64,000 nt of DNA from a virus, in IMG/VR virus record IMGVR_UViG_3300020048_000085; one strand, given 5' to 3'. Shown here piece after piece: positions 3,313 to 63,023 of the stretch (position 1 is the stretch's first letter; the number at the start of each line of letters is the position of its first letter). The notes beneath the pieces were generated by a model that was not told where the DNA came from, searched no databases, and was given only the letters and a program-made list of their open reading frames with translations. A program made the position numbers and the translations under genes.

Positions 3313-3753
3313 TTATATATTGAATTTATTAACATCATAATAATATATAATATCATCATATGTCAAATTTTCAAACATAGCAACAACTTTATCATAATCA
3401 AACAATTTAATTTTTATTGTATCATATATCACGTATTCAACACCTCTTTCATGATGTTTATGCTCAATTTTTACTATTTTTTTAATATTATCTATTATAT
3501 AATCAATAATAAATCTATGTTTTTGTGAATCACCTCCTCGATAATTAGAAAATTCTACAATTATATCATCTTTTTGTTTTTTAAAATAAATTTCTGAATA
3601 TAAAAAACTACTATCTTTATTTTTCTCAAATCTAATACTTGTGCCTTTATATGCATAATAAACTTTATATCTTTGTCTTAAAAAATTAAACATAACTGTT
3701 ATTAAATCTACACAAAAAAAAGTACTCTCAAACAATTTAAACTTTTTTATCAT
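3313..3753 (-). CDS. Member of the N-terminal FKxFE paralog family (MIKKFKLFES... ...DVNKFNI)
   Basis: It has the shared N-terminal motif M-I-K-K-F-K-L-F-E and the shared C-terminal KFNI tail. Confidence 0.55.
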   Translation of the reverse strand: MIKKFKLFESTFFCVDLITVMFNFLRQRYKVYYAYKGTSIRFEKNKDSSFLYSEIYFKKQKDDIIVEFSNYRGGDSQKHRFIIDYIIDNIKKIVKIEHKHHERGVEYVIYDTIKIKLFDYDKVVAMFENLTYDDIIYYYDVNKFNI

Positions 3754-3762
3754 TATTAATTA

Positions 3763-4548
3763 TTAATTATTAATTATTTTATCAACATGAACATCACCTT
3801 TCATAATAACTTCAGATTCTTCTCCTCCAATAAATATAGCAACATCATCAAATAACACCTCTGAAACTAAAATTGTTTGTTTAGTTGAATATATTGGTTT
3901 AAATTGTTTTCCTCCAGTAAATATATATTTTGAAAATCTTTCTGCTTCATTTAAACTAGTTGTCCAACAAGAATATTCACTTTTAATATTTGGATTATAA
4001 TCACACTTCAGACCTCGATAAATTACAATTTTTTCTGGTATATTACCATCAAACATTTCGAATGCTGTTTTATAATTCCATTTATCAATATGTCTTGTTT
4101 TTGATATTTTATCTAATATATTAGTGAGTGCTCGTTGAGAATTAAAATGATCAACAATCAAATCACTTATTCTATCAAAAGATTTATCTATATTAGGGTT
4201 CTTATAACATACAAATAAACTATATGGTATTCTACTAATTTTGTATGATTTAGTATCATATTTTCTAAGCTCATTTTGTAATTTAAAAATATCACCAAAA
4301 GTTTTTACTCCAAAAAAATCATCAATTATCTTCTTACATTCAATTGTTGAGGTTATATATTCATTTCCAATACTAACACATGGAAACTTACTAAATGATT
4401 CCATACAATCAACACCCATTCTACTATCATTTATCCAATTTTTTATTAACATTTCTCCATTATAAACATAGTATAAAAAATACAACCAAGCAACATCACA
4501 ATATAATATCTCAGCCATTTTTTCAAATTTTTTAAATTCTATTATCAT
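3763..4548 (-). CDS. Putative mono-ADP-ribosyltransferase (R-S-E class) carrying the family N-terminal motif (MIIEFKKFEK)
   Basis: Ordered motifs are present: aromatic-Arg (VIYRG), an STS-like WTTSL, and GGEESEVIM (E-x-E) about 45 aa downstream. This is the R/STS/ExE triad of C3/iota/Alt-type ARTs. The call is by motif only. Confidence 0.45.
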   Translation of the reverse strand: MIIEFKKFEKMAEILYCDVAWLYFLYYVYNGEMLIKNWINDSRMGVDCMESFSKFPCVSIGNEYITSTIECKKIIDDFFGVKTFGDIFKLQNELRKYDTKSYKISRIPYSLFVCYKNPNIDKSFDRISDLIVDHFNSQRALTNILDKISKTRHIDKWNYKTAFEMFDGNIPEKIVIYRGLKCDYNPNIKSEYSCWTTSLNEAERFSKYIFTGGKQFKPIYSTKQTILVSEVLFDDVAIFIGGEESEVIMKGDVHVDKIINN

Positions 4549-4907
4549 TTTTTATTCTCTAATTTTTCATAAATTGAAGCTCCATATTTAGTATTGAATA
4601 TATCTTGTTTAGAAACAAAATAATCACCACTTGTAAATAAATAATCCAATCTAATATATTGAGCTAAGACTATTGATTTTTTAGATCCAGTCATCAAACT
4701 ATATCTTTTAGCAACATCAAACTCTGTAGTAAAAAATGTACCACTCTTAAATTTACCAGTATAAATAATCTTGTTAAAATTGTTTTTATTTGTACCATGA
4801 TATAAATAGATATAATAATTACCATCAATAACAATTTTATCTATACCACGTTTATTTATATTATCTAATAACATATCACTAATATAATCTTCAAATATCT
4901 TAATCAC
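4545..4907 (-). CDS. FKxFE-family protein (MIKIFEDY...) with a YHGT motif
   Basis: ATGA overlap with the downstream gene. LYHGTNKNNF resembles the H-G-[ST] nicotinamide-pocket motif of H-Y-E class ARTs and Tpt1/KptA enzymes. This is weak evidence. Confidence 0.4.
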   Translation of the reverse strand: MIKIFEDYISDMLLDNINKRGIDKIVIDGNYYIYLYHGTNKNNFNKIIYTGKFKSGTFFTTEFDVAKRYSLMTGSKKSIVLAQYIRLDYLFTSGDYFVSKQDIFNTKYGASIYEKLENKK

Positions 4908-5809
4908 ATGAAACTCTTTTTTTTAATTAATATATCAACATTTGATAAATAACCACTCTTAATATGAACATTACCATTATCTTCATATAATATATCTTCA
5001 TTCTCATATTCAAAATCAAAAATATATAAGTCATAATCATCTCTTGCTGCAGGTAAATTAATAAAATTATTATTTTTGCTTAAATACAAGTTATCATAAT
5101 CATATCCAATAACTAATTTTTCAATTTCACCATTTCTATTATCAAGTGGTATTATATTATCAACTAAACCAATATTTTTTATATTATTTGATTTTTTATA
5201 TCCTCTCCAATACAAACAATAACCATGATTTATAATTTTTATCTTATAATTTATAATACTATCAATCCAAGCATCATTTTTTTCAATTTTAATACCATCT
5301 TGAACATATATTTCACCAAAAATTTCCTTTATTTTTGGTATATATTCTTTAAAAAAACTAGGTAAATTTATTCTAGAATGATTAAAATGACCACCATCAC
5401 TATCAAACCAACCACAATGTTTCAAATGTTCAACTCGTTCTTTATTTATTATAAACTTATTAGTATATTTACGTATATTTGGAATCTTATTTGTTTTGAT
5501 TTGCTCTTCAAATTCTTGTAATCTTATCTTTTTTATTGAACCATAGCCTACCTCATTTGACGGATATGTAATTGGATTTATTTTAAACTTATCACTTAAT
5601 TTATCACCATCCAATTCCAATTTAAAAATAGAAACAGGTGAATCACCAATATAATAAGACATATTCTTATTTCTAGTTGTAGAAATATTTGAGAATTTAT
5701 ATGAACTCAACGAATTAGTACTCAATATATAATCACATTTCTCCAAATCAAAAATATGATATAATTTTCCTAATTTTTTACCTTCAAATAATTTAAAATT
5801 TGTAACCAT
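4904..5809 (-). CDS. FKxFE-family protein (MVTNFKLFEG...), 301 aa, function unknown
   Basis: It has the N-terminal family motif and an ATGA overlap with 4545..4907. A TATATATA-like element lies upstream of its start. Confidence 0.5.
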   Translation of the reverse strand: MVTNFKLFEGKKLGKLYHIFDLEKCDYILSTNSLSSYKFSNISTTRNKNMSYYIGDSPVSIFKLELDGDKLSDKFKINPITYPSNEVGYGSIKKIRLQEFEEQIKTNKIPNIRKYTNKFIINKERVEHLKHCGWFDSDGGHFNHSRINLPSFFKEYIPKIKEIFGEIYVQDGIKIEKNDAWIDSIINYKIKIINHGYCLYWRGYKKSNNIKNIGLVDNIIPLDNRNGEIEKLVIGYDYDNLYLSKNNNFINLPAARDDYDLYIFDFEYENEDILYEDNGNVHIKSGYLSNVDILIKKKSFM

Positions 5810-13390: not shown

Positions 13391-13665
13391 ATGATAAAAT
13401 TATTTGAAGAATTAATTTAATAGAAGAACCTGAAAAAGATGAAATATTAATTTGTGAAATTAAAAATAATAACAAAATTATATTTATTATTAAAATTACG
13501 TCAATACCAACAATAAGTAAAGTATATCCAAAAAGTTTTAAATTTGATACTATAGACTTAACTGAAAATTATAATGCTGAAATTTATTATAATTATATAG
13601 ATAAGTATTTATTCTCTGTAAGTGGAATACATTGTGAATTATTATTTAGAATATTTAATTTATAA
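13391..13665 (+). pseudogene. Decayed member of the FKxFE/KKFNL paralog family
   Basis: It begins ATG ATA AAA TTA TTT GAA GAA (MIKLFEELI) and then stops. The region ends ...gaatatttaatttataa (RIFNL-stop-like), which mimics the family junction. There is no long ORF in between. Confidence 0.35.
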
Positions 13666-13700
13666 AATTAATATATAAGTATACAAAAAAAAATAAAAAT

Positions 13701-14081
13701 ATGAAATATTTAAAAACTTTTGAATATAATTTATCAAACAAATCAATTTATTATAAAATAATAATTGATGGTTCATTTGATAAATTTACAATTGCTCTTG
13801 AAAAATTGGGTATGTTAGAATCTTTTTTATTTGATTGGGATATAAATGATTTTGATGATATTGAAGTAGAGAGTAAATATTTATTTTCTAATGAATATAT
13901 ATATTTAGCAATTGCTAAAAGTGAATATAGTAATAGAAGATATATTACTGATTTTACTCCAACCAATTTCATTGTCAGAAGATATATTACTGATTTTCCA
14001 GATTCTATACAAAAATTTGAATATGGTGGTGAAATAAAAATAGAAGATTATGAAATAGATTCAAAAAAATTTAATTTATGA
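13701..14081 (+). CDS. FKxFE/KKFNL family paralog (MKYLKTFEYN ... SKKFNL)
   Basis: It has both the N- and C-terminal family motifs and an ATGA overlap with the next gene. A TATATA element lies about 25 nt upstream. Confidence 0.6.
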   Translation: MKYLKTFEYNLSNKSIYYKIIIDGSFDKFTIALEKLGMLESFLFDWDINDFDDIEVESKYLFSNEYIYLAIAKSEYSNRRYITDFTPTNFIVRRYITDFPDSIQKFEYGGEIKIEDYEIDSKKFNL

Positions 14082-14422
14082 AACACATAAGATTATTTGA
14101 AGAGTTAGAATCACAATATAAAGTAGGTGATTATGTGTTAATTAAATATATACCTAAATCTAAATCATTATTAGAATTAATGAAATTTGTAAATAATTCA
14201 ATAGGTAAAATGATGTTTATTGATGAACGTAGTGTTATTTTAGAATATGTTGATATACCAGATAATATAAAGCATTATTTTAATGATAAAAATGTTGGAA
14301 ATAAAAAAATTAAAAATTCTGCTTTTTTTTGGTATCACAATAGTATAATAAATAGATTAGCTACTGAAGATGAGATAAAAGAATTTAAAGTTAAAAAAGA
14401 TTTAAATAAATTTAATTTATGA
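14078..14422 (+). CDS. FKxFE/KKFNL family paralog (MKHIRLFEEL ... LNKFNL) with a KVGDYV small-barrel motif
   Basis: Family motifs at both ends, with ATGA overlaps on both sides. Confidence 0.6.
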   Translation: MKHIRLFEELESQYKVGDYVLIKYIPKSKSLLELMKFVNNSIGKMMFIDERSVILEYVDIPDNIKHYFNDKNVGNKKIKNSAFFWYHNSIINRLATEDEIKEFKVKKDLNKFNL

Positions 14423-14820
14423 AATATATAAAAACATTTGAAAATAAAGAAAAATTTATAAAAATGACAGATAAGAATAAACTCAATAGAAACATTTATT
14501 ATTATTTGTTGTATGTGGATTCAATTGAAAAATTTGACTTCGCATTAGATAAAATAGGTATAAAAGATGATTTTTATGATGATATATGGGGTGCACAAGT
14601 TAATATTGATGAATATATTATACCTAAATTAGAAAAAGATAAAAAAATATATTTGAGTGTAGATTATTTTATTGAAAATTTTGACGTTTTTAATCATGAA
14701 CCAAGTGATGAAAAATTAGTATCACTGAGAGATGATAATGATAGAAAATGTAAAATAATATATGGTGGAGAGATATCAGTATATGATTATGAAATTATAG
14801 CAAATAAATTTAATTTATGA
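14419..14820 (+). CDS. FKxFE/KKFNL family paralog (MKYIKTFENK ... ANKFNL)
   Basis: Family motifs and ATGA overlaps. Confidence 0.6.
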   Translation: MKYIKTFENKEKFIKMTDKNKLNRNIYYYLLYVDSIEKFDFALDKIGIKDDFYDDIWGAQVNIDEYIIPKLEKDKKIYLSVDYFIENFDVFNHEPSDEKLVSLRDDNDRKCKIIYGGEISVYDYEIIANKFNL

Positions 14821-15158
14821 AACATATTAGAAAATTTAATGAGAAGAGACGACTAAAGACAGGAGATTATGTTTTAGTTAAATTAGATACTTATACACAA
14901 TCAACTGATAGAATTATACAAGCAAAAGAATATATAAACACACATATTGGTAAGTTGATTAATATAAATAATACTAGACTTGATGATGTTCGTATTGAAT
15001 ACAGAGATGTACCTGAACACATAAGAAGCTATTTTGGAACTTCTAACAAAGATGAAAATGCTTATTATAGATCAGTTGATATTGATAAAATAGTTGAATT
15101 TGGTTCAACACCAGAAGAATTAGAAGTATTTTTACAATCAAAAAAATTTAATTTATGA
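14817..15158 (+). CDS. FKxFE/KKFNL family paralog (MKHIRKFNEK ... SKKFNL)
   Basis: Family motifs and ATGA overlaps. It carries the TGDYVLVK motif. Confidence 0.6.
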   Translation: MKHIRKFNEKRRLKTGDYVLVKLDTYTQSTDRIIQAKEYINTHIGKLININNTRLDDVRIEYRDVPEHIRSYFGTSNKDENAYYRSVDIDKIVEFGSTPEELEVFLQSKKFNL

Positions 15159-15502
15159 AACACTTAATATTATTTGAAGATTTAAAAAAATCATCACCAA
15201 AATATAAAGTTGGAGATTATGTTCATATTGATATGGAACCAGATTTTGATTATGATGTTTGTTTAGCAAAAATTGTTGATGTTGATAATAATGGATTTTT
15301 AATTGAACCAGAAGATAAAGAAAGTAATGATTTTAACGATTATATTAACAAATATAATCCATTTCCATATTCAGTTAAATTTTATAAAAATGGCTGGAAT
15401 GTCGAAGAAAATTTAATAGATAGATATTTAACTGAAGATGAAATTGTATATTTTAATTTTTTAATAAAACATGGAACAGAAATAAAAAAATTTAATTTAT
15501 GA
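15155..15502 (+). CDS. FKxFE/KKFNL family paralog (MKHLILFEDL ... IKKFNL)
   Basis: Family motifs and ATGA overlaps. It carries the KYKVGDYVHID motif. Confidence 0.6.
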   Translation: MKHLILFEDLKKSSPKYKVGDYVHIDMEPDFDYDVCLAKIVDVDNNGFLIEPEDKESNDFNDYINKYNPFPYSVKFYKNGWNVEENLIDRYLTEDEIVYFNFLIKHGTEIKKFNL

Positions 15503-15765
15503 GTAAACTAAGTAATGATATTCACAAAATGTTAGGATATCTTAAAATAATACAACAATATAATTTTTTTGCACAATTAGGAAACGAAGATGATATAGAT
15601 TATTTAAAAGACAAAGTAGATAATTTATATTATATTGATGATAATGAACAACTTATTAAAGATTTTGAATGGTGTGCAAATATGGTAAATATGCTTTATG
15701 ATGAAGTAGATTCAGACTTCAAAAAGAGATTATTAATTGAAGAAAATGAAAATATAGATAATTAA
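15499..15765 (+). CDS. Hypothetical acidic small protein (88 aa), last gene of the plus-strand array
   Basis: It is translationally coupled (ATGA overlap) to the preceding gene and is followed by a hairpin terminator. Confidence 0.45.
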   Translation: MSKLSNDIHKMLGYLKIIQQYNFFAQLGNEDDIDYLKDKVDNLYYIDDNEQLIKDFEWCANMVNMLYDEVDSDFKKRLLIEENENIDN

Positions 15766-15796
15766 AAAAGTCAGATTAAATCTGACTTTCTTTTTA
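15765..15796. terminator. Bidirectional intrinsic terminator
   Basis: Stem aagtcaga / tctgactt (15767-15789) with loop ttaaa, flanked by an A-run and a T-run. It lies between convergent genes. Confidence 0.6.
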
Positions 15797-16270
15797 TTTA
15801 CCATATCTTTCACCTGGATATGTATTCTTAATTTCTTTCCACATATCAAAAGAGCGTTTGAGTAAATCAATTTTATTATTAATAAAGTCTATCACACCAT
15901 CGTCTGTAGTTACATCAATATCAAAATGATCAATAACACCTTGTGGTATAGCATTTAAATATTGTTTTACACTACCAAAATAAAAATTGTCTCTATTATC
16001 AATTCTATATTTTTCAGCAGCATTAATTAATGATTCAATAAAATGTTGATCATGATGACCATTCAATTTATCTCCCATCAAATTTATTTTTCTTTCATCG
16101 TTCTTTTCTCTTTCAATATTATATGCAGTTTGAGTGATAGATGATGATGTTGGTAATTTATCAAAATCTTCATCTTTAATAGTTTTTTTATGTTCACCAC
16201 CAATATTACCACCTTGTGGAAATTTTATATACTCTTTTATATATTCACCAAAATCTACTATTTTTCTCAT
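15794..16270 (-). CDS. Hypothetical protein (158 aa)
   Basis: ORF only. Confidence 0.45.
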   Translation of the reverse strand: MRKIVDFGEYIKEYIKFPQGGNIGGEHKKTIKDEDFDKLPTSSSITQTAYNIEREKNDERKINLMGDKLNGHHDQHFIESLINAAEKYRIDNRDNFYFGSVKQYLNAIPQGVIDHFDIDVTTDDGVIDFINNKIDLLKRSFDMWKEIKNTYPGERYGK

Positions 16271-16300
16271 AATGTTATTTTTTTAAATTATATATTAATT

Positions 16301-16621
16301 TTATAAATTGAATTTATTTGTAGCTAATAATAAATCAATATCTTCAAATTTCATTATTTTCCAATTTTCTCTATTTGTCCATTCATTATCATGGTATTTA
16401 TGAATAACAAAATCTAATCTTTTATTAGCAGCATCAATAGAGTCGAAATATGATATATTATCAATATTAATATCAATATCATTAATATTTTTTACTGTTA
16501 TAAAATCTTCTAAACCATGTCTACATAATAATAAAATTAAATAAATTTGTTCTATTGGACGATGTAAAATTAACACATATTTTTCTTTTTTCTTGAAAAT
16601 ATTAAATCTTTCTATTATCAT
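16301..16621 (-). CDS. FKxFE/KKFNL family paralog (MIIERFNIFKK ... ATNKFNL)
   Basis: Family end-motifs. Confidence 0.55.
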   Translation of the reverse strand: MIIERFNIFKKKEKYVLILHRPIEQIYLILLLCRHGLEDFITVKNINDIDINIDNISYFDSIDAANKRLDFVIHKYHDNEWTNRENWKIMKFEDIDLLLATNKFNL

Positions 16622-16624
16622 AAG

Positions 16625-17239
16625 TTATAAATTAAATTTATTTGCATCAAATAAATATGAATATTCTTTTTTTATTCTATAATGTATTTTCTCATCTTTA
16701 AATATTTTAATAAACTCAGAAGTATGCATTTCAATAAACACCTTTTGAAAATTATAATCAGTATTATAACTAAAATAATTAAAATTAGATATATCAGCAT
16801 TATTTTCTAATAAATATATAGCAACATCCCAATAATTATTTAATGCTGATGTCATTAGTGGTGATACATTACTATCATTTGATATATCTATATTTGCGCC
16901 ATTCTCAACCAACAATTTAACTATATCTAAATATCCATTATGAGCTGCTACATATAATGGAGTTGCATTAATACTATTGAAACTATTCACATTAGCATGA
17001 TATTTAATCATCAATTTAACTAATTTGATATCAGCAATATATACAGATAATGATAACATATTACCATAACAATTATTGTCATCATATATATTTGGATTAG
17101 CTCCATTTTTTAATAAATATTCAACTTTTTTTAAATTTGGTTTATTTAAACTAGCCACACTATTAATAAAATATAATAGATAGTCAATTAAATATTTAGT
17201 TTTATCTATATATTTTTCAAATTGCTTAATATATTTCAT
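16625..17239 (-). CDS. Ankyrin-repeat protein that is also a member of the FKxFE/KKFNL family (MKYIKQFEKY ... ANKFNL)
   Basis: It has at least three canonical ANK repeats, for example TPLYVAAHNGYLDIVKLLVENGANIDISNDSNVSPLMTSALNNYWDVAIYLLENNADI. Confidence 0.7.
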   Translation of the reverse strand: MKYIKQFEKYIDKTKYLIDYLLYFINSVASLNKPNLKKVEYLLKNGANPNIYDDNNCYGNMLSLSVYIADIKLVKLMIKYHANVNSFNSINATPLYVAAHNGYLDIVKLLVENGANIDISNDSNVSPLMTSALNNYWDVAIYLLENNADISNFNYFSYNTDYNFQKVFIEMHTSEFIKIFKDEKIHYRIKKEYSYLFDANKFNL

Positions 17240-17583
17240 AGATTGAATTTCTTTAAGTTTTTATTTATTTCTAATTCTTCTAATGTCTTTCCAGTTGCAA
17301 CAACATCAGAATATTTAAAACTTTTTATTCCACAATTATTTTTTTTGTCAATGAAAAACATTTTTAAATCATCTGGAATATTATCATATTTAACATAAAT
17401 TCTATACCATTGGTTTGATGGTTTTGCATAATCATCAAGTAAAAAACTATCAATTATTCCAATTGTATTATTTATAAAATTTCTCAAATCAATTAATATT
17501 TCACTCGGATAATTCGTTAATATATAATCACCAACAGAAAATTCTGGTATCATATTTTCAAATATTTTAAATTGTGTTATCAT
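17236..17583 (-). CDS. FKxFE/KKFNL family paralog (MITQFKIFEN ... LKKFNL)
   Basis: Family motifs and ATGA overlaps. Confidence 0.6.
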   Translation of the reverse strand: MITQFKIFENMIPEFSVGDYILTNYPSEILIDLRNFINNTIGIIDSFLLDDYAKPSNQWYRIYVKYDNIPDDLKMFFIDKKNNCGIKSFKYSDVVATGKTLEELEINKNLKKFNL

Positions 17584-18005
17584 ATATTAAATTTTTTTGA
17601 ATTTGTAATATATTTTGGTGTTTTATTTATAGCACGTTTAAATACATAAAATACATATTTAGTTATTGGATCACCAATATTATCTATTCTTGCATTATCT
17701 AAAATATATTTTATTTTATCATATAATAATATATCTTTTTCAAATTCTACGATTATTAATTCAATAGCATATTTTTTTACTTCATTGCGTATTCTATCGT
17801 CTATTTTATTATTTCCTTTTTTCCATGTGTTTGAACTGTAATATAAATTATATAATATAGAAAATATATAACTAAATTCTTCTGGTACCTTAAATATATT
17901 TTGAATAAATGATGTATCTTTTTTATACATTCTATCATAATAATTTAAATAATAATCAACCATAGATTGATCATATTTTTCAAATATTTTAAATTGTGTT
18001 ATCAT
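17580..18005 (-). CDS. FKxFE family paralog (MITQFKIFEK ... SKKFNI)
   Basis: Family motifs and ATGA overlaps. Confidence 0.6.
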   Translation of the reverse strand: MITQFKIFEKYDQSMVDYYLNYYDRMYKKDTSFIQNIFKVPEEFSYIFSILYNLYYSSNTWKKGNNKIDDRIRNEVKKYAIELIIVEFEKDILLYDKIKYILDNARIDNIGDPITKYVFYVFKRAINKTPKYITNSKKFNI

Positions 18006-18436
18006 AAATTAAATTTTTTAGCGTTCTCAATTAAAATCAACTTGTTTATTATATCTTTTTTTCTAGGTGGAATATAACCATAAATTGTAAATGGTGAATT
18101 AACATCAACTGAGTGAATAATATGTTCATCATTTTTTAAAATTAAATCTAATGATACAAACTCTTTTACTCTTTTTTTAGCTGTTCCTGTATAACCAATA
18201 CCACATCGTTCAACTTTACTAATAATACCATTATGTTTATTTTCATAATCAACAAGTACCTTTTTAATATTATTAAAAGAATATTTACTATAAAATTTAA
18301 CATTAGTACCAGGAATCAATAAATCAGTTAGAAATTTTTTAATTTTTGTATAACTACCATTATAATATTCTAATAATGTATTTAACATAAATGTTATTTC
18401 TTCTTGTGTATCAAATGAATCAAATTTAGTAATCAT
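18002..18436 (-). CDS. FKxFE/KKFNL family paralog (MITKFDSFDT ... AKKFNL)
   Basis: Family motifs and ATGA overlap. Confidence 0.6.
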   Translation of the reverse strand: MITKFDSFDTQEEITFMLNTLLEYYNGSYTKIKKFLTDLLIPGTNVKFYSKYSFNNIKKVLVDYENKHNGIISKVERCGIGYTGTAKKRVKEFVSLDLILKNDEHIIHSVDVNSPFTIYGYIPPRKKDIINKLILIENAKKFNL

Positions 18437-18442
18437 ATAATT

Positions 18443-18826
18443 TTATTTTTTTCTTAAATATGAAAAAACAACATCAAAAAATATTAGTTTAATACAAAAT
18501 GCTATTATAACCCATAAGAATGAAAAATTTAATACTATTATAATAGAAGCAATAATCATTAATAATTCAGATAAAAACCAAAATAAATGCCACGCATCAG
18601 TAAAAATAACAAATATAGTAGTACTACCTAAAAATTTTTCACCACTATGTGGATCATTATTTTTATATTTATTTAATGAACCTAATCCTTGCTCCCAAAA
18701 ATTTGGATTTAAATGATATTTCAAATATAATTTAGATTTATAAAATAAATTAGGAGATGATGATAAATCAGTAATTGATTTTGCAACTCCAGATAGGAAC
18801 AATAGTATTATAATTAATATTATCAT
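18443..18826 (-). CDS. Predicted small integral membrane protein (at least 3 hydrophobic helices)
   Basis: MIILIIILLFLSGVAKS... followed by a long hydrophobic C-terminal stretch. It is embedded in the paralog array. Confidence 0.4.
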   Translation of the reverse strand: MIILIIILLFLSGVAKSITDLSSSPNLFYKSKLYLKYHLNPNFWEQGLGSLNKYKNNDPHSGEKFLGSTTIFVIFTDAWHLFWFLSELLMIIASIIIVLNFSFLWVIIAFCIKLIFFDVVFSYLRKK

Positions 18827-18828
18827 AT

Positions 18829-19248
18829 TTATAAATTGAATTTTTTTGTTTCTTTATTTATATTTATTTCATCTATGATATCTTTAATATCATCAGGAAT
18901 AATACCATAAATATTCATTGGAGAATTTGTGTCTACATCATGTTTATATCTTATTCCTTTTAATTTTATTGTTAAAAAAATATAGTTAAATTCTTTATTA
19001 AAACCATAACCAAATCCCCTCACAACACCTTTATGTTGTTTATTTGAGTGCATGAAATAATTTAATCCTTTAATATCTTCTGTGCATTTTTTACATTCGA
19101 ATTTAATAACATTATTTTTAATTTCAAGTAATTTAAATATAAAATCACTTATAGATTCATTATCACCATTAAAATAACCAATAATATCATTTATTGTTAA
19201 TGTTACTTTATTTCCTGTATTTTCAAATAATTTGAATTGAGTTATCAT
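18829..19248 (-). CDS. FKxFE/KKFNL family paralog (MITQFKLFEN ... TKKFNL)
   Basis: Family motifs. The element ttatatatac lies immediately upstream of its ATG on the minus strand. Confidence 0.6.
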   Translation of the reverse strand: MITQFKLFENTGNKVTLTINDIIGYFNGDNESISDFIFKLLEIKNNVIKFECKKCTEDIKGLNYFMHSNKQHKGVVRGFGYGFNKEFNYIFLTIKLKGIRYKHDVDTNSPMNIYGIIPDDIKDIIDEININKETKKFNL

Positions 19249-19302: not shown

Positions 19303-20322
19303 TTAAAATAATTCCTTTAAAATATGTGTTCTTGATGCATAATTATATGCAACTTTTTCATTTTTTATAAAATCTTTTTTATTATTATATTTAGATGCGA
19401 CTTCTAAACATAATTCTTTATTCCAAAATAATCTACCATTTTTCATATGTGAACACACATCATCTATCCAATTACTTCTAGAACATCTTAAATATGATCC
19501 AGTTGAATTTTCATAAAAATCTTTTTTACAATTATATTTTAACGCTTCTTCTTTACATTTATTTTTTGTCCATTTTATAATACTACCACCTACACCTCCG
19601 CCTTTTATCTCATTTAATATATTATAATTGTTATTTCTATATTCTTCAATTTTCTCATCTTCCATTTTTTTAATAATATCAATATCTAAATAATCTGTCA
19701 ATTGTTTAAATATATAATTTACTTTTGTTTTGTGTTTATATTTGTATACTTGACTTTTTTTGTTGGTTTTGTGATAATAATTTCTAATATTTATATCATA
19801 TGTTAACCCTATATACACAGAATTATCATCAAATTCATAAATATATAAGCATCTTCTTTTTAAATTTCCACGATATATCATATGTTCACAAATTTCATCT
19901 ATCCATTTATTTTTGTGTGATATACTATATGCTGACATAGAATTAAATTTAAAATCGCTTTTATTATCATATTTTAATGCTTCTTCTTTACATCGTTCAA
20001 AATTCCAATAGTTTTTACATTTTTGATATTCTATCATATGCTCACAAATTTCATCCAACCAGTTATTTTTTCTTGAATATTCATAATATTTTTTGGAATT
20101 TTTTTGAAAATCAGTTCTTTTTGAATATTTATTTGCTTCATTTTTACACTCTATTTTAGAATATATTTTACAATTTTTATGCTTCATGTGTGAGCAAACA
20201 TCATCTAAAATATGATTGAAATATGCATAATTATATGCATAATTATCATTATTCATAAAATCTTGTTTAAATTTATATTTTAGTGCTATTTCTTGACATA
20301 ATTCTTTTGTGTATTTTATCAT
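19303..20322 (-). CDS. GIY-YIG endonuclease with tandem Cys/His-containing repeats of about 40 aa (W..E.C..HM / YxKCKE..LKY modules); the start is placed at the internal Met (MIKYTKELCQ), although the longest ORF extends to 20358
   Basis: GIY-YIG core YIYEFDDNSVYIGLTYDINIRNYYH, flanked by repeats such as KNKWIDEICEHM. The 20322 start is chosen because an RHH ORF occupies 20325..20498 in another frame, mirroring the paralogous cassette at 61809..63182. Confidence 0.55.
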   Translation of the reverse strand: MIKYTKELCQEIALKYKFKQDFMNNDNYAYNYAYFNHILDDVCSHMKHKNCKIYSKIECKNEANKYSKRTDFQKNSKKYYEYSRKNNWLDEICEHMIEYQKCKNYWNFERCKEEALKYDNKSDFKFNSMSAYSISHKNKWIDEICEHMIYRGNLKRRCLYIYEFDDNSVYIGLTYDINIRNYYHKTNKKSQVYKYKHKTKVNYIFKQLTDYLDIDIIKKMEDEKIEEYRNNNYNILNEIKGGGVGGSIIKWTKNKCKEEALKYNCKKDFYENSTGSYLRCSRSNWIDDVCSHMKNGRLFWNKELCLEVASKYNNKKDFIKNEKVAYNYASRTHILKELF

Positions 20323-20324
20323 AA

Positions 20325-20498
20325 TTATAATTTTATTTTTGATGTATTTATTCCACATTTATTAAAATAATCTAGCATTGCAAATTCTATATATTTTGAC
20401 TTGTTTGTAGTACTATCTAAAATCAAATCGTGTAATTCTGGAGACATAGAAATAGAAATTCTTATTTTTCTATCTTCTTCTTTTTTTAATGTTTTCAT
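20325..20498 (-). CDS. Small ribbon-helix-helix (CopG-like) protein immediately upstream of the GIY-YIG gene
   Basis: A 57-codon ORF (MKTLKKEEDRKIRISISMSPELHDLILDSTTNKSKYIEF...KIKL) with a beta-strand/helix-helix pattern. It is a paralog of the ORF at 63024..63182 and is too short for the ORF track. Confidence 0.35.
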   Translation of the reverse strand: MKTLKKEEDRKIRISISMSPELHDLILDSTTNKSKYIEFAMLDYFNKCGINTSKIKL

Positions 20499-20615
20499 AA
20501 TTTTCTTTTTATTGTATATATAAATATTTTAAAGTCAAAAGGTGTAATTATATAGTAATTTTAAAAATATTCAAACATTTTCTATAAAAAATTATATTAT
20601 ATAATAAATTATAAT

Positions 20616-20623
20616 TATCTTTG
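20616..20623 (+). promoter_or_regulatory. TATCTTTG promoter -7-like motif abutting the RHH gene start
   Basis: An exact copy of the recurring 9-mer TATCTTTGT. It matches the Bacteroidetes sigma-A -7 consensus TAnnTTTG. Confidence 0.35.
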
Positions 20624-20624
20624 T

Positions 20625-20789
20625 ATGAGGAATAGAATTAAAAATGAAGAAAAAAATGTTAAAGTTGGAATTACAATACATCCAGATTTATCTAAAATAT
20701 TAGATGAATATTCAAAAGAAAATAAAATAACCAAATCTAAAGTCATTCAAAATATTATGAATGAGCATTTTAAAAATAAAAATAAATAA
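20625..20789 (+). CDS. Small ribbon-helix-helix (CopG-like) protein, divergent from the minus-strand RHH and immediately upstream of sbcDC
   Basis: MRNRIKNEEKNVKVGITIHPDLSKILDEYSKENKITKSKVIQNIM... A paralog is at 63290..63481. It is under 60 aa and so absent from the track. Confidence 0.4.
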   Translation: MRNRIKNEEKNVKVGITIHPDLSKILDEYSKENKITKSKVIQNIMNEHFKNKNK

Positions 20790-20792
20790 ATA

Positions 20793-23700
20793 ATGAAAAT
20801 TGTACACTTGGCTGATGTTCATATCAGAAATATTGAAAGACATGATGAATACAATACTATTTTTAGTAAAATAGTAAATAAATTAAAAGAATTAAAACCA
20901 GATAGAATAGTTATAGTTGGTGATTTGTTTGAAAGTTATATTGAAATTTCAAATGAAGCACAAATTATTGCAGGATTTTTTTTGACTGAATTATCTAAAA
21001 TTGCTAAAGTTATAATTACTCGTGGTAATCATGATATTCGTAAAAAGAATATAAACAGAGTAGATAGTATAGAAACAGTTATAAAATTGCTCAATAATAA
21101 AAATATTAATTACTATGATAAAACTGGTTTTTATGATGATGAAGATGATTTTGTTTGGGTTGTATATGAACACGCAGACAAATTAAATAATCCTTGGTCA
21201 AATAAGAAAAAAGAAGATGATAAAATATATATTGGTTTATTTCATGATCCAATTTTAAACGTCACGTCTAATACAGGTAGAATATTTAATGATTCTGCTA
21301 AATATAAAAATATTAATTATTTTAAAAATAATAATTTTTTGATGATTGGTGATATCCATAAACGCCAATTTTTAAGAGAAAATAAATCTGCTGCATATTG
21401 TGGTTCAACAATTCAACAAACATTTGGAGAAACAGTTGAAAAACATGGTTTCCTATTATGGGATATAAAATCATCTACTGATTTTGATATTACTGAATGT
21501 GATATTAAAAATGAATATACATTAATAAATTTATTTGTTGATGAAAATTCTGATTATGATAACTTAAATTTATCTGCAGATAATATTGGATTATATCCTG
21601 AATTTAAAGTACATTGGAAAGATTATTCTTCTAATATTAACACAGTAAATGAAAAAAAGATACGAGATTATATTAAAGAAAAATTTAATACAACTCAAGT
21701 AATTTTTGATAAAACTTATTTATATACAGATGTTTTATCATCTAAAATGCTTTCAGAATCTATTGATTTGACAGATGCTCAAACACAAAGAGAAATATTT
21801 GAAGAATATTTAAAAGAGCAAAAATATAAAACAGATGATATTGAATCAATACTTAATATTGATGATATTATTAATAGTAGAATTCAATTAACAGAACAAT
21901 TAAAAAATAATGAATGGAGTATTGATAAATTTTGGTTCAGCAATTTTAAATCTTATGGTGATGATAATGTTGTTGATTGGAGTGATATTTCAGGTTTAGT
22001 ACAAATTCATGGAGAAAATCAAGAAGGTAAAACTACAATTCTTGATGCTCTTATGTATATACTATATGGTAAAACAACCACAACATTAAGTCCAGAAAAA
22101 TTTGGAGATAATAGATATATAAACAATAAAAGGGATTTAAATAGTGTTAGTGGTGGAGCAATAATTAGTACTAATGGTAATAAATTTGTTATTCAAAGAA
22201 GCACAGAAAGAGTTTGGAATAAAAATAAAACTGCTTTAAGTGGTTGTCCAACTGTGTTAGATTTTTATAAGAGTGATGTTATTTGTGAAGAAAATAAGAT
22301 AACTGGTGAGCTTAAAAGTACAACACAAAAAGAATTAGATATAATATTAGGTGATTTGAAAGATTTCATTAGACTATCATTCACAAATGCTGATAATTTA
22401 AATGATTTATTATCTGAAACTAGAAGTGTGTTTATGGATAGTATTATTAGAGATGCTGGATATGATATATTTGAGACTAAATTAAATGAATTTAAGGAAT
22501 ATAAGAAAGAATTAACAGAAGAAAAATTAATAATTAATATTCAAGATTCTGAATTAACAATAGCTGATTTGAAATCTGATATTGATAGTAAGAGAGAAGA
22601 TATAAAGATTAATGATATTCAAATAATAGAATTTGTTGTTGATTTAAAAACAAATAATAAAAGTAGAGATAATTTAAATAAAAATTTAAATAATATTGAT
22701 TCTTCTATGATTAATTTTGATGAGGATTTGAATTTAAATTCAATTGAAAATTACAAAGATAAAATTGAAGAAGCGAAAATACAAACAACTATTTTAAATA
22801 GAGAAATTGATAAATTACCAGATAATTTTGATCCAACTAAATTAAATGAGTATAAAATTAAGTTAAAACAAACAAACAATAAAATATCTGAAAGGAAAGA
22901 TGAAATATCAAATCTTAGAAGATCATTAACAGAATCAGACAATAAAATAGATAAGGTAGATTCTAAAATAGTAGAATTGAAACAATCTGAAATTAAAAAG
23001 ATTTCTTTGAAAATTAGTGATAATGAATTAAATATTGAAGTTATTAAGAACAAAAAAGAGAATATAATAAAAGATGAATTAAAACAATTAACATCATCTA
23101 TTCAAAAAATTGAATTGGATAAAAGTGAAATAACATCTCAAATGAAACTATTACAACGAGATGGTGTAAATTCTAAAAAGTCGAATGATGAATTAGATAA
23201 AGAAATTGAAACCTTTAGAGATTCAAAATCTTGTCCAAGTTGTGGTCGTGATTATGATAAAAATGATCCAAAATATTCAGAGCACATATTACATTTAGAA
23301 GAAAAAATTAAAAGTCTTGAAAATAAAAAAGATGCTAATGATTTAATAATTCAAAAAAGTCTAAGTGAATATAATAAATTGAAATTGTCTATATCTGATT
23401 TTGATGATAAAATATCAAAATTAAAAGATAATAAAGATGATATAATAAAAGGAGTTTACTCAGAAGATATTCTAACTAAATTGAAAGTTGTTGGTAGTAG
23501 TAACCAATTAAAACAAGATAATATTGATTTAAATATATTAATAAATAATATAGAAAATGATAAATTTGAAAATTTAGATTCATTAAAAGAAAATATTGAA
23601 AAAGGTAATAAATTAAAAGAAAATATTGAAAAAAGTAAATCAGATACATTATTAGTCATAAAAAATATTGAATCAGAATTAAAAAATTTTGATATAGATG

Positions 23701-24542
23701 GTATTGAAAATGATATATCTATTGAAGAAACAAACAGAGATAATTTTGAATTAAGAAATAAAAAAGTTTCAAAGAAAGATAATATACAATTAACTATTGA
23801 AAATTTTAATTTAAAAATTAAAGATTTAAATTCAGAAATTGATAAATATCAATCACACAAAATTAAAATAGAAGAAAATAAACTAATACAAGATGATATT
23901 GATGAAATTGATAAAAAGATAACATCTATTAATGATGAAATTAAAAAATTAGAACAAGATAATATCAACAAGGAAAAGGATATGCTTCTTAAGCAAAATG
24001 AGATTCATTTAATTGTAACTAAAATTGAAAAGTATTTAGAACAAAAGAAAAAAGAAGAATTGCTGAAAGAATATCAGAAATGTATATCAAGAGATGGTTT
24101 ACCAACATTCTTATTGAAAAAATCTATTCATCTAATCAATAAAGAAATGTCTGAATTGTTAGTTAATGTTGATTTTACTTTATTTTTTGATGAAAATTTA
24201 ATATTAAGACTTAGTGCAAATGATAGATTGGATGTTAGTCAAAATGCAATTGAGAGTTCAGGTAAAGAAAGAACATTCTGTGCATTAGCACTTAAAATTT
24301 CATTAAGACAAATAAATGTAAAATCAAAACCAACATTTATAGTATTAGATGAAATAATGGGGAAATTAATTGATGGTAAAAAAACCAAATCAATAGAGCA
24401 ATTTGCAAATTTCTTAGATGATTTAAAACACAAAGTAAATAAAATAATAATAATTGAACATGTGCATAATATAAATTATGATGCATTAATTGAAGTTGAA
24501 AAAGATGAAAATTTAATTTCACATTTGGAATTAAATTATTAA
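20793..24542 (+). CDS. sbcCD: Single-polypeptide SbcD(Mre11)-SbcC(Rad50) fusion, a DNA double-strand-break processing nuclease/ATPase
   Basis: N-terminal calcineurin-like phosphoesterase motifs (DVH, VGDLF, RGNHD). These are followed by the Rad50/SbcC Walker A GENQEGKTT, a long coiled coil with a CPSCGR zinc hook, and a C-terminal Walker B/D-loop FIVLDEIMGKL. Confidence 0.8.
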   Translation: MKIVHLADVHIRNIERHDEYNTIFSKIVNKLKELKPDRIVIVGDLFESYIEISNEAQIIAGFFLTELSKIAKVIITRGNHDIRKKNINRVDSIETVIKLLNNKNINYYDKTGFYDDEDDFVWVVYEHADKLNNPWSNKKKEDDKIYIGLFHDPILNVTSNTGRIFNDSAKYKNINYFKNNNFLMIGDIHKRQFLRENKSAAYCGSTIQQTFGETVEKHGFLLWDIKSSTDFDITECDIKNEYTLINLFVDENSDYDNLNLSADNIGLYPEFKVHWKDYSSNINTVNEKKIRDYIKEKFNTTQVIFDKTYLYTDVLSSKMLSESIDLTDAQTQREIFEEYLKEQKYKTDDIESILNIDDIINSRIQLTEQLKNNEWSIDKFWFSNFKSYGDDNVVDWSDISGLVQIHGENQEGKTTILDALMYILYGKTTTTLSPEKFGDNRYINNKRDLNSVSGGAIISTNGNKFVIQRSTERVWNKNKTALSGCPTVLDFYKSDVICEENKITGELKSTTQKELDIILGDLKDFIRLSFTNADNLNDLLSETRSVFMDSIIRDAGYDIFETKLNEFKEYKKELTEEKLIINIQDSELTIADLKSDIDSKREDIKINDIQIIEFVVDLKTNNKSRDNLNKNLNNIDSSMINFDEDLNLNSIENYKDKIEEAKIQTTILNREIDKLPDNFDPTKLNEYKIKLKQTNNKISERKDEISNLRRSLTESDNKIDKVDSKIVELKQSEIKKISLKISDNELNIEVIKNKKENIIKDELKQLTSSIQKIELDKSEITSQMKLLQRDGVNSKKSNDELDKEIETFRDSKSCPSCGRDYDKNDPKYSEHILHLEEKIKSLENKKDANDLIIQKSLSEYNKLKLSISDFDDKISKLKDNKDDIIKGVYSEDILTKLKVVGSSNQLKQDNIDLNILINNIENDKFENLDSLKENIEKGNKLKENIEKSKSDTLLVIKNIESELKNFDIDGIENDISIEETNRDNFELRNKKVSKKDNIQLTIENFNLKIKDLNSEIDKYQSHKIKIEENKLIQDDIDEIDKKITSINDEIKKLEQDNINKEKDMLLKQNEIHLIVTKIEKYLEQKKKEELLKEYQKCISRDGLPTFLLKKSIHLINKEMSELLVNVDFTLFFDENLILRLSANDRLDVSQNAIESSGKERTFCALALKISLRQINVKSKPTFIVLDEIMGKLIDGKKTKSIEQFANFLDDLKHKVNKIIIIEHVHNINYDALIEVEKDENLISHLELNY

Positions 24543-27324: not shown

Positions 27325-27555
27325 ATGAAAAAAATAATAATAAATTATATTTTATATGTTTATCACAATTATATTCAAAATGATGAATTTGATAATATAT
27401 ATAAAGAGTGGGCTAAACCTTTTATGATGGTACTTAAATATATACACAATGTATACATGTGGATATTTTGTATTATATTTTTTCCAGTTATTTTAATCTT
27501 AATGATGATTGATAGCTATATGAAAAAAAATAGAAAAAAAATAAAAAAATTATGA
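27325..27555 (+). CDS. Small hydrophobic protein between clpS and the unfoldase gene
   Basis: 76 aa with a predicted TM helix (IFCIIFFPVILILMMI). It is tightly packed with ATGA-type overlaps on both sides. Confidence 0.35.
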   Translation: MKKIIINYILYVYHNYIQNDEFDNIYKEWAKPFMMVLKYIHNVYMWIFCIIFFPVILILMMIDSYMKKNRKKIKKL

Positions 27556-39366: not shown

Positions 39367-39837
39367 TTAATATCTTCTTATAATAGTTTTATATTTTGGT
39401 GGTTCTACTGAAGGTATATAATTAGGCTCACCATTAGCTTTATCATTATACTCATCTCTGAATATATTATTTTTTTCTATGTTTTGATTTCTAGGTATTG
39501 ATATAGAATCATCATTTTTTTTTCTATCTCTTTTTTCATCTTTTTTTAATCTTTGATTAATAAATTCTCTAATATAATTATGGGCAGATTTTAAATCATT
39601 CTTCTTTTTATTTCTTAACCTGATGTTTTCACCTTCTGATGTTTTTTTAAAAATCTTACAAATAAAAAAACTACCAGATTTTTCTATTTTAGCAAAATAA
39701 TAGGGAGTACTATTTCCAGATTTATATTTTATCTCACCAGCATATACTTTAGGATTATATTTGGCTTTACCACTAGTAAATAAATTATCATCTATGATAT
39801 TATTTTTCCAAGTTTCGAATGTTTTAATATTTTTCAT
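39367..39837 (-). CDS. Basic protein starting MKNIKTFETW (dispersed FKxFE-family N-terminus), function unknown
   Basis: It has the N-terminal family motif. The C-terminal half is Lys/Arg-rich. Confidence 0.45.
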   Translation of the reverse strand: MKNIKTFETWKNNIIDDNLFTSGKAKYNPKVYAGEIKYKSGNSTPYYFAKIEKSGSFFICKIFKKTSEGENIRLRNKKKNDLKSAHNYIREFINQRLKKDEKRDRKKNDDSISIPRNQNIEKNNIFRDEYNDKANGEPNYIPSVEPPKYKTIIRRY

Positions 39838-50652: not shown

Positions 50653-51780
50653 TTATTTCAGTTTATCAATAATATCAATTATTTGTTCTAATGATAATCC
50701 TTGTTTCATATATTTATAAACATCAAATCTATCAACATCAAGGCTAGATTTATAATGTTTATATAATTCATTATTTAGTATATTATATTTATTTATATCA
50801 TCCATATTTTTAAACTCATTACCTTCATATCTTATTGATTCAATATTAATTGTTTCTTTTGGGTTGAAAATTGCATATGTATTATGATTATCTTCTTTTG
50901 CTACATATCCACTAAAACCAAGTGCTTTAATTGAACTAGAAACAGAATCATTTTCATAATATCTCCAAGTATTAGATAATTTTATATTTTTTGGTTTTTT
51001 ATTCCATGGTTTTTCTACAGTTTTTGAATAATCTTCCATCATATCTTTTTTACCAATTTCAAATAATTCAACACCTTTATTATATTCTTCATCTGTTAAT
51101 TCAAATCCACCATATGCCTTTTGATGTTTTCTACTAAGAAATAAACCTGTCAAATGATCAGATATATTATATATTGATACTCCTTTATTTTTAACTACAT
51201 CTTTAACATAATCAATAAATTCTTTAAAGTGTTTACGATACTCATATCCAAAGTGATGATTACCATATGATACTGATGATGCTCCTTCTAAATAATAATT
51301 AAAGTTTTTTTTGTCTATTGTATAAACATTATCATCATCTATTCTAACTACAATAAATTTATCAACAGGATATGATGGATCAGGAATTTCATCTCCAATT
51401 TTAGCAGTTAAAATATCAGGATTTGGCTCTATAATATCATCACCTTTTAATAATTCTAATATATCATCTTTTGTAAAATCATGCGGAAAACAAAAATTTG
51501 TCATATAACAAGTCACCTTATCAGGTAATTTATTTTTTAATTTTTGTAAATGTTCTCCATTGTTAGCATCAAATATTTCACCATTTAATTTACATATATA
51601 AACAATAGGCTCAGCATCCATTTCATTATCCATTGATTTTTCACTAGCATATTCCCAAGCAAATTTTGGATTATCTGAAAAAAATGTTATTCTATTTTTA
51701 AACTCACTAAATAAATACGGAGATCCATGATATAATACAAAATTTGACATCATTTTCTCAAAGGTTTTTAAATATTTCAT
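50653..51780 (-). CDS. Protein starting MKYLKTFEKM (FKxFE-family N-terminus) with a VLYHGSPYLF (H-G-S) motif; possible H-Y-E class ADP-ribosyltransferase or Tpt1-like enzyme
   Basis: It has the family N-terminus. The H-G-S motif immediately follows it, as in the PARP/DT-type nicotinamide pocket. The assignment is weak. Confidence 0.4.
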   Translation of the reverse strand: MKYLKTFEKMMSNFVLYHGSPYLFSEFKNRITFFSDNPKFAWEYASEKSMDNEMDAEPIVYICKLNGEIFDANNGEHLQKLKNKLPDKVTCYMTNFCFPHDFTKDDILELLKGDDIIEPNPDILTAKIGDEIPDPSYPVDKFIVVRIDDDNVYTIDKKNFNYYLEGASSVSYGNHHFGYEYRKHFKEFIDYVKDVVKNKGVSIYNISDHLTGLFLSRKHQKAYGGFELTDEEYNKGVELFEIGKKDMMEDYSKTVEKPWNKKPKNIKLSNTWRYYENDSVSSSIKALGFSGYVAKEDNHNTYAIFNPKETINIESIRYEGNEFKNMDDINKYNILNNELYKHYKSSLDVDRFDVYKYMKQGLSLEQIIDIIDKLK

Positions 51781-52380: not shown

Positions 52381-52591
52381 TTTCAAATATAAAGTTGGAG
52401 ATGTTATAGATAAAAATCATTTTATATGTACTATTAAACATTTAGATTATCATTATTATGATATAGAATATTATGATTCGAATAATATTAAAAAATATAC
52501 ATTTGTTGATGCAATATATTTAGACGCAGCATCAAAATTAGAGTTAAAATATAGTAGAAAAGAAAAATTGAAAATAATAAATGAGTCATAA
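52370..52591 (+). CDS. Small protein with a KYKVGD small-barrel motif and an ELKYSRKEKLK tail
   Basis: It is paralogous to 52581..52814 and has an overlapping start/stop. Confidence 0.45.
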   Translation: MDYNFKYKVGDVIDKNHFICTIKHLDYHYYDIEYYDSNNIKKYTFVDAIYLDAASKLELKYSRKEKLKIINES

Positions 52592-61794: not shown

Positions 61795-61828
61795 AAAAAC
61801 GTGGTGTATTATGCACCACGTTTTTTAT
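61795..61828. terminator. Bidirectional intrinsic terminator between ligA and the convergent GIY-YIG gene
   Basis: Stem aacgtggtg / caccacgtt followed by T6. Confidence 0.6.
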
Positions 61829-63020: not shown

Positions 63021-63023
63021 ATT

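Follow-up and report, generated by a model that had tools for sequence, protein, structure and literature searches.

Why should one stretch of phage DNA encode so many small proteins that resemble each other only in their first and last few residues, and what are these ends for? The question is raised by a 64-kb window (the whole stretch of DNA analyzed here) of the IMG/VR record IMGVR_UViG_3300020048_000085, for which open reading frame (ORF) calling gave 94 non-nested products. Some of these products begin with one short peptide and end with another, here termed the N-tag and the C-tag. The two-tag family that they form is real and apparently undescribed, and is defined by its two terminal linear peptides rather than by a common fold. 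Its genes are best explained as a lineage-specific, greatly expanded set of small accessory genes of very AT-rich, T4-related jumbo or mega-phages. The best reading of the tags is that they load proteins into the capsid, to which we assign a probability of about 0.4.

Two terminal motifs define the family

Counted from Met1, the N-tag follows the pattern (M)-Φ-x-x-Φ-K-x-[FY]-E and occurs in two registers that align on F-E: register A (M-I-T-x-F-K-x-F-E) and register B (M-K-Y-[IL]-K-x-F-E). The C-tag runs to the last residue of the protein as [ATS]-[NK]-K-[FY]-N-[LI]. The N-terminal pattern was drawn up post hoc, and its expectation was taken from the rate of the same pattern inside proteins; it stands at the start of 16 of the 94 products against 0.3 expected. 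The pattern [NK]-K-F-N-[LI]-stop is matched by 13 of the 94 (0.29 expected), 12 of which are family members; the thirteenth (36466-37113) is probably a chance match.

The initial annotation had described at least 18 genes with the N-terminal motif. Sixteen are strict matches, and about 18 are reached only with the variant at 16301-16621 and the frameshifted remnant at 13391-13665. One supposed member, a membrane protein (18443-18826), drops out as it carries neither motif. The C-terminal motif, which is as strong as the N-terminal one, had been overlooked; the observation is real and larger than first described. The two convergent arrays reported earlier were found as described: they occupy 13701-15502 on the plus strand and 19248-16301 on the minus strand and meet at a bidirectional hairpin terminator (15764-15792), one of two terminator-like sites found against 0.4 expected in shuffled sequences. 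The two registers alternate freely within the body family of the 17236-17583 protein, and also between matching positions of the window and L004, a 501-kb IMG/VR contig syntenic with the left end of the window. They appear interchangeable.

Selection acts on the peptides

Codons were counted in 181 distinct genes. The invariant Asn is encoded by AAT 129 times and by AAC 52 times (background 11% AAC), the tag Glu by GAA 145 times and by GAG 25 times (background 12% GAG), and the C-tag aromatic residue by TTT (100), TAT (53), TAC (16) and TTC (12). Synonymous variation at the invariant residues is equal to or above background. Because synonymous codons vary freely there, selection is on the peptides and not on the DNA junction; the counts show that both peptides are under protein-level selection. 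The initial annotation had proposed a tag conserved as a peptide and had named equally conserved synonymous sites as the observation that would speak against it, and no such conservation is seen.

A rival explanation places the conserved element in the nucleic acid. A junction of about 45 nt (...AAAAAATTTAATTTATGAAA...) would be kept for termination-reinitiation coupling and for micro-homology shuffling like that of PeSL cassettes, with the peptides as by-products. Such an origin would suit the tight packing of the arrays, in which most gene junctions are ATGA stop/start overlaps (112 of the 181 members), as well as the preference for ATA over ATT at Ile and for third-base A (81%) at one variable tag position. 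PeSL-mediated modular shuffling is documented in T4-type phages, where the cassettes are likewise short conserved elements at gene boundaries in variable regions, offering possible homology for shuffling (PMC2839356). The cassettes are, however, a non-coding promoter and stem-loop conserved as DNA, whereas the element described here is coding, conserved as peptide and lacks an intergenic spacer. PeSL-type cassette features were not found in the arrays, where the ATGA overlaps are coding and synonymous sites vary, and no promoter or stem-loop was found between array genes, the only hairpin being that at 15764-15792. The F/Y exchange is conservative in the protein yet has to change the second codon position, and the two registers differ in nucleotides while converging on one peptide pattern. 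In addition, the N-tag is present in stand-alone genes with unrelated upstream DNA (4904, 13701, 18829, 39367, 50653), and the C-tag in terminal genes that end in TAA and have no coupled start (3313, 16301). The synonymous variation largely refutes the junction as sole cause, and we consider this explanation very unlikely. Read-through across the junctions to give a polyprotein was ruled out: the downstream frame has a TAA two codons before its ATG.

Size and spread of the family

A scan of IMG/VR for the tag junction yielded 59 stretches on contigs of 4.6-330 kb with about 23% G+C. In about 680 kb of these loci, both tags are carried by 264 ORFs, the N-tag only by 70 and the C-tag only by 96. 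The doubly tagged set comprises 180 unique and 159 non-redundant proteins of 62-456 amino acids (aa; median 115 aa), which fall into 79 body clusters (E<1e-4), the largest with 54 members. Asn at position -2 is present in all 159, Lys at -4 in 156, Glu at 9 in 149 and Lys at 6 in 148; at 11-14 residues from the C-terminal end there is a weak acidic helix (E-E-L-E). Homologues of the 17236-17583 protein in metagenomes keep both tags, and one 5-kb contig repeats the order SH3-like, ankyrin, SH3-like, with MITQFKIFE starts and K-Y-N-L ends. The choice between F and Y in the C-tag is uniform in most loci (11/11 F in the window, 9/9 F in each of L009 and L033, 16/16 Y in L063), and synonymous codons differ within such loci. 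Such uniformity is compatible with tags that co-evolved with a single reader in each genome, or with local ancestry.

Database searches returned little. Ankyrin and leucine-rich repeat (LRR) domains were all that Pfam recognized in the cluster representatives and in the N-tag-only proteins of larger size: ankyrin (two) and LRR (one) among the 79 representatives, and an LRR body among the N-tag-only proteins. PHROGs gave just function-unknown matches, to the ankyrin member, and sequence searches of solved structures gave nothing beyond ankyrin and LRR labels. In the GenBank phage collection, no relative was found by DNA search or by tblastn of two members. A profile of 12 mixed window members gave 32 hits among 1.8 billion representatives, which is no measure of family size as two short tags cannot reach significance in such a search. 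The literature was searched for a prior description of the two-tag family and for virion proteomes of related Bacteroidota jumbo phages, and nothing usable was found.

The 735-kb phage LR756501 encodes, at 232496-276287 (locus L007), many proteins of 120-470 aa with T4-like leaders (MKKFSQYINE, MKNFTRFINE, MIKTFKIFE, MIKKFGLFE). Because none of these proteins ends in K-F-N-L, the N-tag is more widespread than the C-tag.

Folds of the tagged bodies

The recognizable bodies are ankyrin repeats, LRRs and SH3-like barrels. The ankyrin-repeat member of the window (16625-17239) had been noted previously and scores above the Pfam threshold for Ank_2. The bodies had also been described as mutually unrelated, which holds for most; all-against-all BLAST joins some of them into three small paralogous subfamilies (13701/14419; 14078/14817/15155/17236; 18002/18829).

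The 17236-17583 protein was modelled by AlphaFold with 8 and then 54 homologues, which gave a confident small barrel with a predicted local distance difference test score (pLDDT) above 90 for the body. Residues 1-10 are predicted as coil (pLDDT 39-51; about 51 with the 54-sequence alignment) although no other part of the alignment is so well conserved, and the C-tag is placed at the end of the terminal helix. The models thus show the N-tag outside the predicted folded domain. Together with the alternating registers, the unstructured N-tag suggests that the tags are linear motifs read by something else. This agrees with the initial view of a short N-terminal module shared by dissimilar proteins: the tag is modular at the protein level and is attached to different folds.

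Were the two tags to read each other, the N- and C-peptides would bind as a clasp within one protein or head to tail in a chain, and a Lys-Asn isopeptide bond formed with the help of Glu is conceivable. The invariant Lys and Glu of the N-tag, the Lys and Asn of the C-tag and the flanking aromatic residues would suit this arrangement, as would the co-occurrence of the tags in 264 ORFs against 70 with the N-tag only. Yet both AlphaFold runs leave the termini unpaired, with a coil at one end and the C-tag closing a helix at the other, and the F/Y choices of the two tags do not covary (counts 82, 68, 31, 19). Many members have the N-tag only, and ankyrin and LRR solenoids keep their ends far apart. 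We see little chance that the tags pair in this way.

An N-tagged protein of the window (375 aa, 50653-51780) had been annotated as ART-like. The N-tag is confirmed, whereas the ART label rests on a match to PF18760 (ART-PolyVal) of 18.2 bits, below the gathering cut-off of 31.2; four of 40 homologues match at E<0.01. His18, Tyr61, Glu276 and Glu296 are invariant, and a sequence search of solved structures gave no match. Some of the 52 homologues of the protein lie on contigs of 630-780 kb; the homologues begin with amphipathic leaders of various kinds, lack a leader, or have a leader-like helix placed between two domains.

These bodies also bear on a simpler explanation, namely that the family consists of ordinary paralogues of one small ancestral protein in which the middles diverged while the ends were retained because folding or stability requires them. 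Tandem arrays, recognizable subfamilies, a cluster of 54 members and a weakly conserved acidic helix before the C-tag are consistent with such descent. The range of folds and sizes, from ankyrin, LRR and SH3-like bodies to a 375-aa enzyme-like protein (62-456 aa overall), argues against it, as do the position of the N-tag outside the fold and the finding that some homologues of the 375-aa body lack the tag or carry a different leader. Common descent of this kind is improbable as the explanation of the tags.

T4-type head genes in related phages

T4 gp20 matches a portal gene in the related locus L010 at E=6e-21. We fetched 53 portal loci and read the gene order in those extending past the portal gene. 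The portal gene is followed there by a protein of about 790 aa, the first 190 residues of which are gp21-like, and then by a capsid protein of about 610 aa with a T4 gp23-like start (KWKPxLE). In L067, a conserved gene for a protein of 150-200 aa also lies after the portal gene. In L067 (16066-18450) and in 25 homologues from L068-L119, a gp21-like protease is fused to a long scaffold-like region of about 12 tandem 14-residue units (Y-S-E-Y-I-A-E-N-L-D-K-N-I-D; the L067 repeats read EYIAENLDKNID), each with an IAE that corresponds to a T4-type [LI]-x-E site. C-termini of these fusions include FDKLNS, ERFKNL and EKFNRI. A tag array and a head module were found on one contig twice (L064/L074 and L051/L107), and tagged genes lie dispersed among the genes of the head module. 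Lak and Tenacibaculum jumbo phages have been placed in the T4-derived group 2.2 with gp21-type proteases (Iyer et al., PMC7824862). Judged from the gp20, gp21 and gp23 homologues that share contigs with tag arrays, the clade is T4-related, and the same would apply to the window genome by relatedness.

Two further features of the head region were noted. The portal proteins of L067-L119 have a long Gly/Gln/Ala-rich low-complexity tail that closes with a conserved acidic residue and Phe (TEF, AEF, FEF). Between the portal and protease genes of L067 (12615-15877) lie two HNH/DUF7487-type homing-endonuclease-like genes; the window has one such gene (34811-36355).

Likeness to T4 leaders and to other systems

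Capsid-targeting sequences of the T4 internal proteins were reportedly described by Mullaney and Black in 1996. The T4 genome (NC_000866) gives MKTYQEFIAE followed by Ala as the start of IPII and IPIII, and MKTFKEFTSTTTPVSTITE followed by Ala as that of IPI (beginning MKTFKEF). Residues 4 and 7 of the leader carry capsid targeting and residues 8 and 10 processing, and Alt, a packaged ADP-ribosyltransferase, is trimmed at both termini (PMC9026906). The capsid-targeting sequences of IPI, IPII, IPIII and Alt have been reviewed (PMC9026906, PMC3012670).

Register B has M1, K2, a hydrophobic residue at 4 (I/L), K5 and an aromatic residue at 7 (F/Y), as in the T4 leader; register A has the same spacing one residue later, at positions 5 and 8. 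One protein of the clade starts MKTYKEFNE, and the LR756501 leaders MKKFSQYINE and MKNFTRFINE closely match the IPIII pattern. The resemblance to a T4 capsid-targeting sequence proposed in the initial annotation is borne out, with M-K, a hydrophobic residue at 4 and Phe at 7 common to the tag, IPI and IPIII.

The likeness extends beyond single residues. In both systems a leader of about 10 residues (8-9 aa here) with the pattern M-K-x-Φ-[KQ]-x-F and a Glu close behind stands at the extreme N-terminus of otherwise unrelated, small, fast-evolving, non-essential proteins; in both, the genes lie in variable clusters and the head genes are of the gp20/gp21/gp23 type. Alt is an ADP-ribosyltransferase, and one tagged member shows a weak, sub-threshold likeness to such enzymes; the trimming of Alt at both ends sets a two-end precedent. 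There are also clear differences. The tag ends in x-[FY]-E, whereas the T4 leader ends in [LI]-x-E before Ala. T4 has about four capsid-targeted proteins, in contrast to dozens per genome here, and its internal proteins are basic, unlike the mostly acidic tagged proteins. T4 has no counterpart of the invariant C-tag K-[FY]-N-[LI].

For the C-tag, a functional parallel is provided by encapsulin cargo-loading peptides and by the C-terminal ends of phage and herpesvirus scaffolds, in which a short peptide at the extreme C-terminus suffices to attach a protein to the inside of an HK97-fold shell. The ends of the protease-scaffold fusions of the clade resemble K-[FY]-N-[LI] over three residues only, and there is no sequence relationship. 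A further parallel is found in the ejection or inner-body proteins of phiKZ, 201phi2-1 and SPN3US, which are paralogous, head-internal and conserved at their N-termini, and are cut after Glu by a gp21-type protease, with a TFE site recorded in 201phi2-1 (PMC5694885). Their propeptides differ in being mostly 80-130 residues long with the motif [ASG]-x-E, in lacking a C-tag and in belonging to another group of jumbo phages (PMC5694885).

Proposed capsid loading and what weighs against it

Two findings support the capsid-targeting reading: the presence of head genes of T4 type, and the agreement of the tag with the T4 leader position by position. In this mechanism, the N-tag would be the clade's version of a T4 capsid-targeting sequence, docking cargo on the scaffolding core during prohead assembly, and the Glu at its end would be a possible cut site of the gp21-type protease. 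The C-tag would be a second docking element that possibly imitates the C-terminal end of the scaffold (FDKLNS, ERFKNL, EKFNRI). The cargo, a collection of binding modules plus one or more putative enzymes, would be carried inside the head and delivered into the host along with the DNA, forming a takeover or anti-defence arsenal. A more specific version is doubtful: a two-part loading code, made of an N-tag derived from a capsid-targeting sequence and a C-tag copied from a scaffold end, would pack nearly any small domain, giving the largest known injected arsenal, in which each genome would hold ankyrin, LRR, SH3-like and orphan effectors by the dozen, cassette-swapped at the tag junctions.

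Several observations weigh against capsid loading. First, the tag removal by a protease proposed in the initial annotation finds little support, as the cleavage rule of T4 is followed by only about a third of the tags: Leu or Ile stands three residues ahead of the putative cut in 54 of 159 and T, K, E or R in the rest, and the candidate cut sites in the scaffold repeats, protease junction and capsid protein of the clade are IAE, INE and LNE. L067 has an LFE where protease and scaffold join; considered as a self-cleavage site, it was rejected because its Glu is not conserved among the 26 homologues, in which the INE just before it is conserved. Second, the tagged family is acidic, with a median isoelectric point (pI) of 5.4 (62% below 6, 18% above 8) against 7.6 for other small proteins of the same loci; mature T4 internal proteins have a pI of 9.0-9.7, so the family does not resemble them in being basic. 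A basic, DNA-associated mature form is typical of IPI-III and is not required of Alt. Third, the window alone has about 16 members as against T4's handful of capsid-targeted proteins, and no set of internal proteins is known to be so numerous. Fourth, the C-tag is without an established role or precedent in T4 head assembly, and its likeness to the scaffold ends is short, with K-[FLY]-N in the last six residues of 3.4% of unrelated ORFs.

The remaining points concern the window and its DNA. No head genes were found in the window's own contig, and the tie of its phage to the T4-type clade would hold through relatedness to other contigs only. The promoter class gives no information on timing and was dropped as a clue, since a TATATA box precedes all kinds of genes alike (75% of array heads, about 90% of head genes and 44% of other genes, including replication-type ones). 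Finally, some nucleotide-level pressure is present on top of the peptide constraint. Ile codons in the tags are almost always ATA, and at the variable tag position before the aromatic residue (Thr, Ile, Lys, Leu or Arg) 81% of the codons end in A, regardless of the aromatic codon that follows, with ACA far exceeding ACT and all Ile as ATA. Selection for A-rich early codons is one possibility for this bias.

The main rival to capsid loading is that a cytoplasmic machine reads both termini as docking or degron signals; this machine could be a phage- or host-encoded unfoldase of the Clp type paired with a protease, or a PDZ-like protein that recognizes free C-termini. The proteins would then do their work after synthesis in the infected cell, and the tags would govern how long they last or what becomes of the host targets they bind. 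Close to each other in the window lie genes for an M16 peptidase of the insulinase type (25701-26855), whose HLCEH zinc motif is intact, and an 847-aa Clp ATPase (27552-30095); a short middle domain and an IGF loop mark the latter as ClpC/ClpA-like, of the ClpP-docking type, and not a ClpB disaggregase. Both are candidate readers or processors of the terminal tags, and their presence speaks for this rival. So do the anchoring of the motifs exactly at the free N- and C-termini, as in terminal degrons; the form of F-N-[LI]-COOH, which is the hydrophobic-x-hydrophobic form of class II PDZ ligands; bodies that are binding modules (ankyrin, LRR, SH3-like); and an acidic pI, which is usual in cytoplasmic takeover proteins. 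Against this, we know of no Clp or PDZ recognition motif that matches the tags, the Clp and M16 genes were seen in the window with no established co-occurrence with the family, and the likeness to T4 leaders and the T4-type head genes would be left unexplained. We regard a cytoplasmic reader as unlikely.

Gene content of the arrays and the window

The members and neighbors of the arrays are listed in Table 1. By eye only, the GEYIKE of the 15794-16270 protein resembles the EYIAE of the scaffold repeat of related phages. Four untagged small proteins of 73-92 aa (52370-52814 and 55588-56083) have K-x-G-D near their start, like the tagged SH3-like bodies, and some end in, for example, KLKIINES or KLIKINLL; a relationship to the tagged bodies is possible.

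Table 1. Members of the two-tag family and neighboring features in the window.
Positions	Strand	Length (aa)	Tags	Termini	Description
3313..3753	-	146	both	MIKKFKLFE...NKFNI	outside arrays
3763..4548	-	261	N-tag only	MIIEFKKFE	L004 matching position has 274-aa MITQFKIFE protein
4904..5809	-	301	N-tag only	MVTNFKLFE	L004 syntenic gene (302 aa) starts MKYLKYFE
13391..13665	+		remnant	MIKLFEELI, two stops, then other frame to LLFRIFNL and stop	decayed family member (three-frame translation), just upstream of + array
13701..14081	+	126	both	MKYLKTFE...SKKFNL	first gene of + array; body paralogous to 14419-14820
14078..14422	+	114	both	MKHIRLFE...NKFNL	SH3-like 'KVGDYV' body
14419..14820	+	133	both	MKYIKTFE...NKFNL	
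14817..15158	+	113	both	MKHIRKFN...KKFNL	SH3-like body
15155..15502	+	115	both	MKHLILFE...KKFNL	SH3-like body
15499..15765	+	88	none		last gene of + array; start overlaps preceding KKFNL stop (ATGA)
15764..15792	.				hairpin terminator, bidirectional
15794..16270	-	158	none	starts MRKIVDFGEYIKEY	last gene of - set
16301..16621	-	106	variant N-terminus, C-tag	MIIERFNIFKK...NKFNL	
16625..17239	-	204	both	MKYIKQFE...NKFNL	ankyrin-repeat protein; Pfam Ank_2 94.8 bits, E=4.8e-27
17236..17583	-	115	both	MITQFKIFE...KKFNL	SH3-like; modelled by AlphaFold
17580..18005	-	141	both	MITQFKIFE...KKFNI	
18002..18436	-	144	both	MITKFDSFD...KKFNL	body paralogous to 18829-19248
18443..18826	-	127	none		hydrophobic membrane protein inside array
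18829..19248	-	139	both	MITQFKLFE...KKFNL	first gene of - array
39367..39837	-	156	N-tag only	MKNIKTFE	stand-alone gene
50653..51780	-	375	N-tag only	MKYLKTFE	weakly ART-PolyVal-like body

The window has 20-31% G+C per 2-kb window (about 22% in most), no tRNA genes were found across its 64 kb, and its sequence is also present inside an 83-kb metagenomic contig. Phage-type genes encode a Mre11/Rad50-like fusion, a RuvC-like resolvase, an NAD-dependent ligase, a thymidine kinase and Sir2; others encode a NusG-like factor, the Clp ATPase, the M16 peptidase and homing endonucleases. The fusion (20793-24542) is one protein of 1249 aa in which an N-terminal Mre11/SbcD-type phosphoesterase is joined to a Rad50/SbcC-type ATPase, which in T4 are the separate proteins gp47 and gp46. 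A 1347-aa protein of the window matches LR756501 and LR756503, both 735-kb uncultured phages, over 96% of its length; its matches to Lak, Tenacibaculum and Chryseobacterium jumbo phages are shorter. A search for contigs encoding protein P0004 gave no match. Two GIY-YIG-like paralogues (19303-20789 and 61809-63481) share 37% identity and repeated ...W[IL]DE[IV]C.HM modules, and each is flanked by paralogous pairs of small genes; the arrangement looks like a duplicated mobile cassette.

Implications

Pfam, PHROGs and the cultured phages sequenced so far lack the family, and annotation pipelines call its members 'hypothetical'. Should the tags serve a purpose other than capsid loading, the occurrence of one invariant peptide pair at the ends of at least 79 unrelated bodies would still suggest a machine that reads them. 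If capsid loading is correct, the T4 internal proteins would be the small end of a larger strategy, in which giant phages deliver dozens of ready-made proteins together with their DNA. The two peptides could then be used as portable tags to pack foreign proteins in phage heads, and the family would constitute a large and easily recognized catalogue of candidate anti-defence effectors. Such loading would also be relevant to the survival of large phages during the earliest minutes of an infection.

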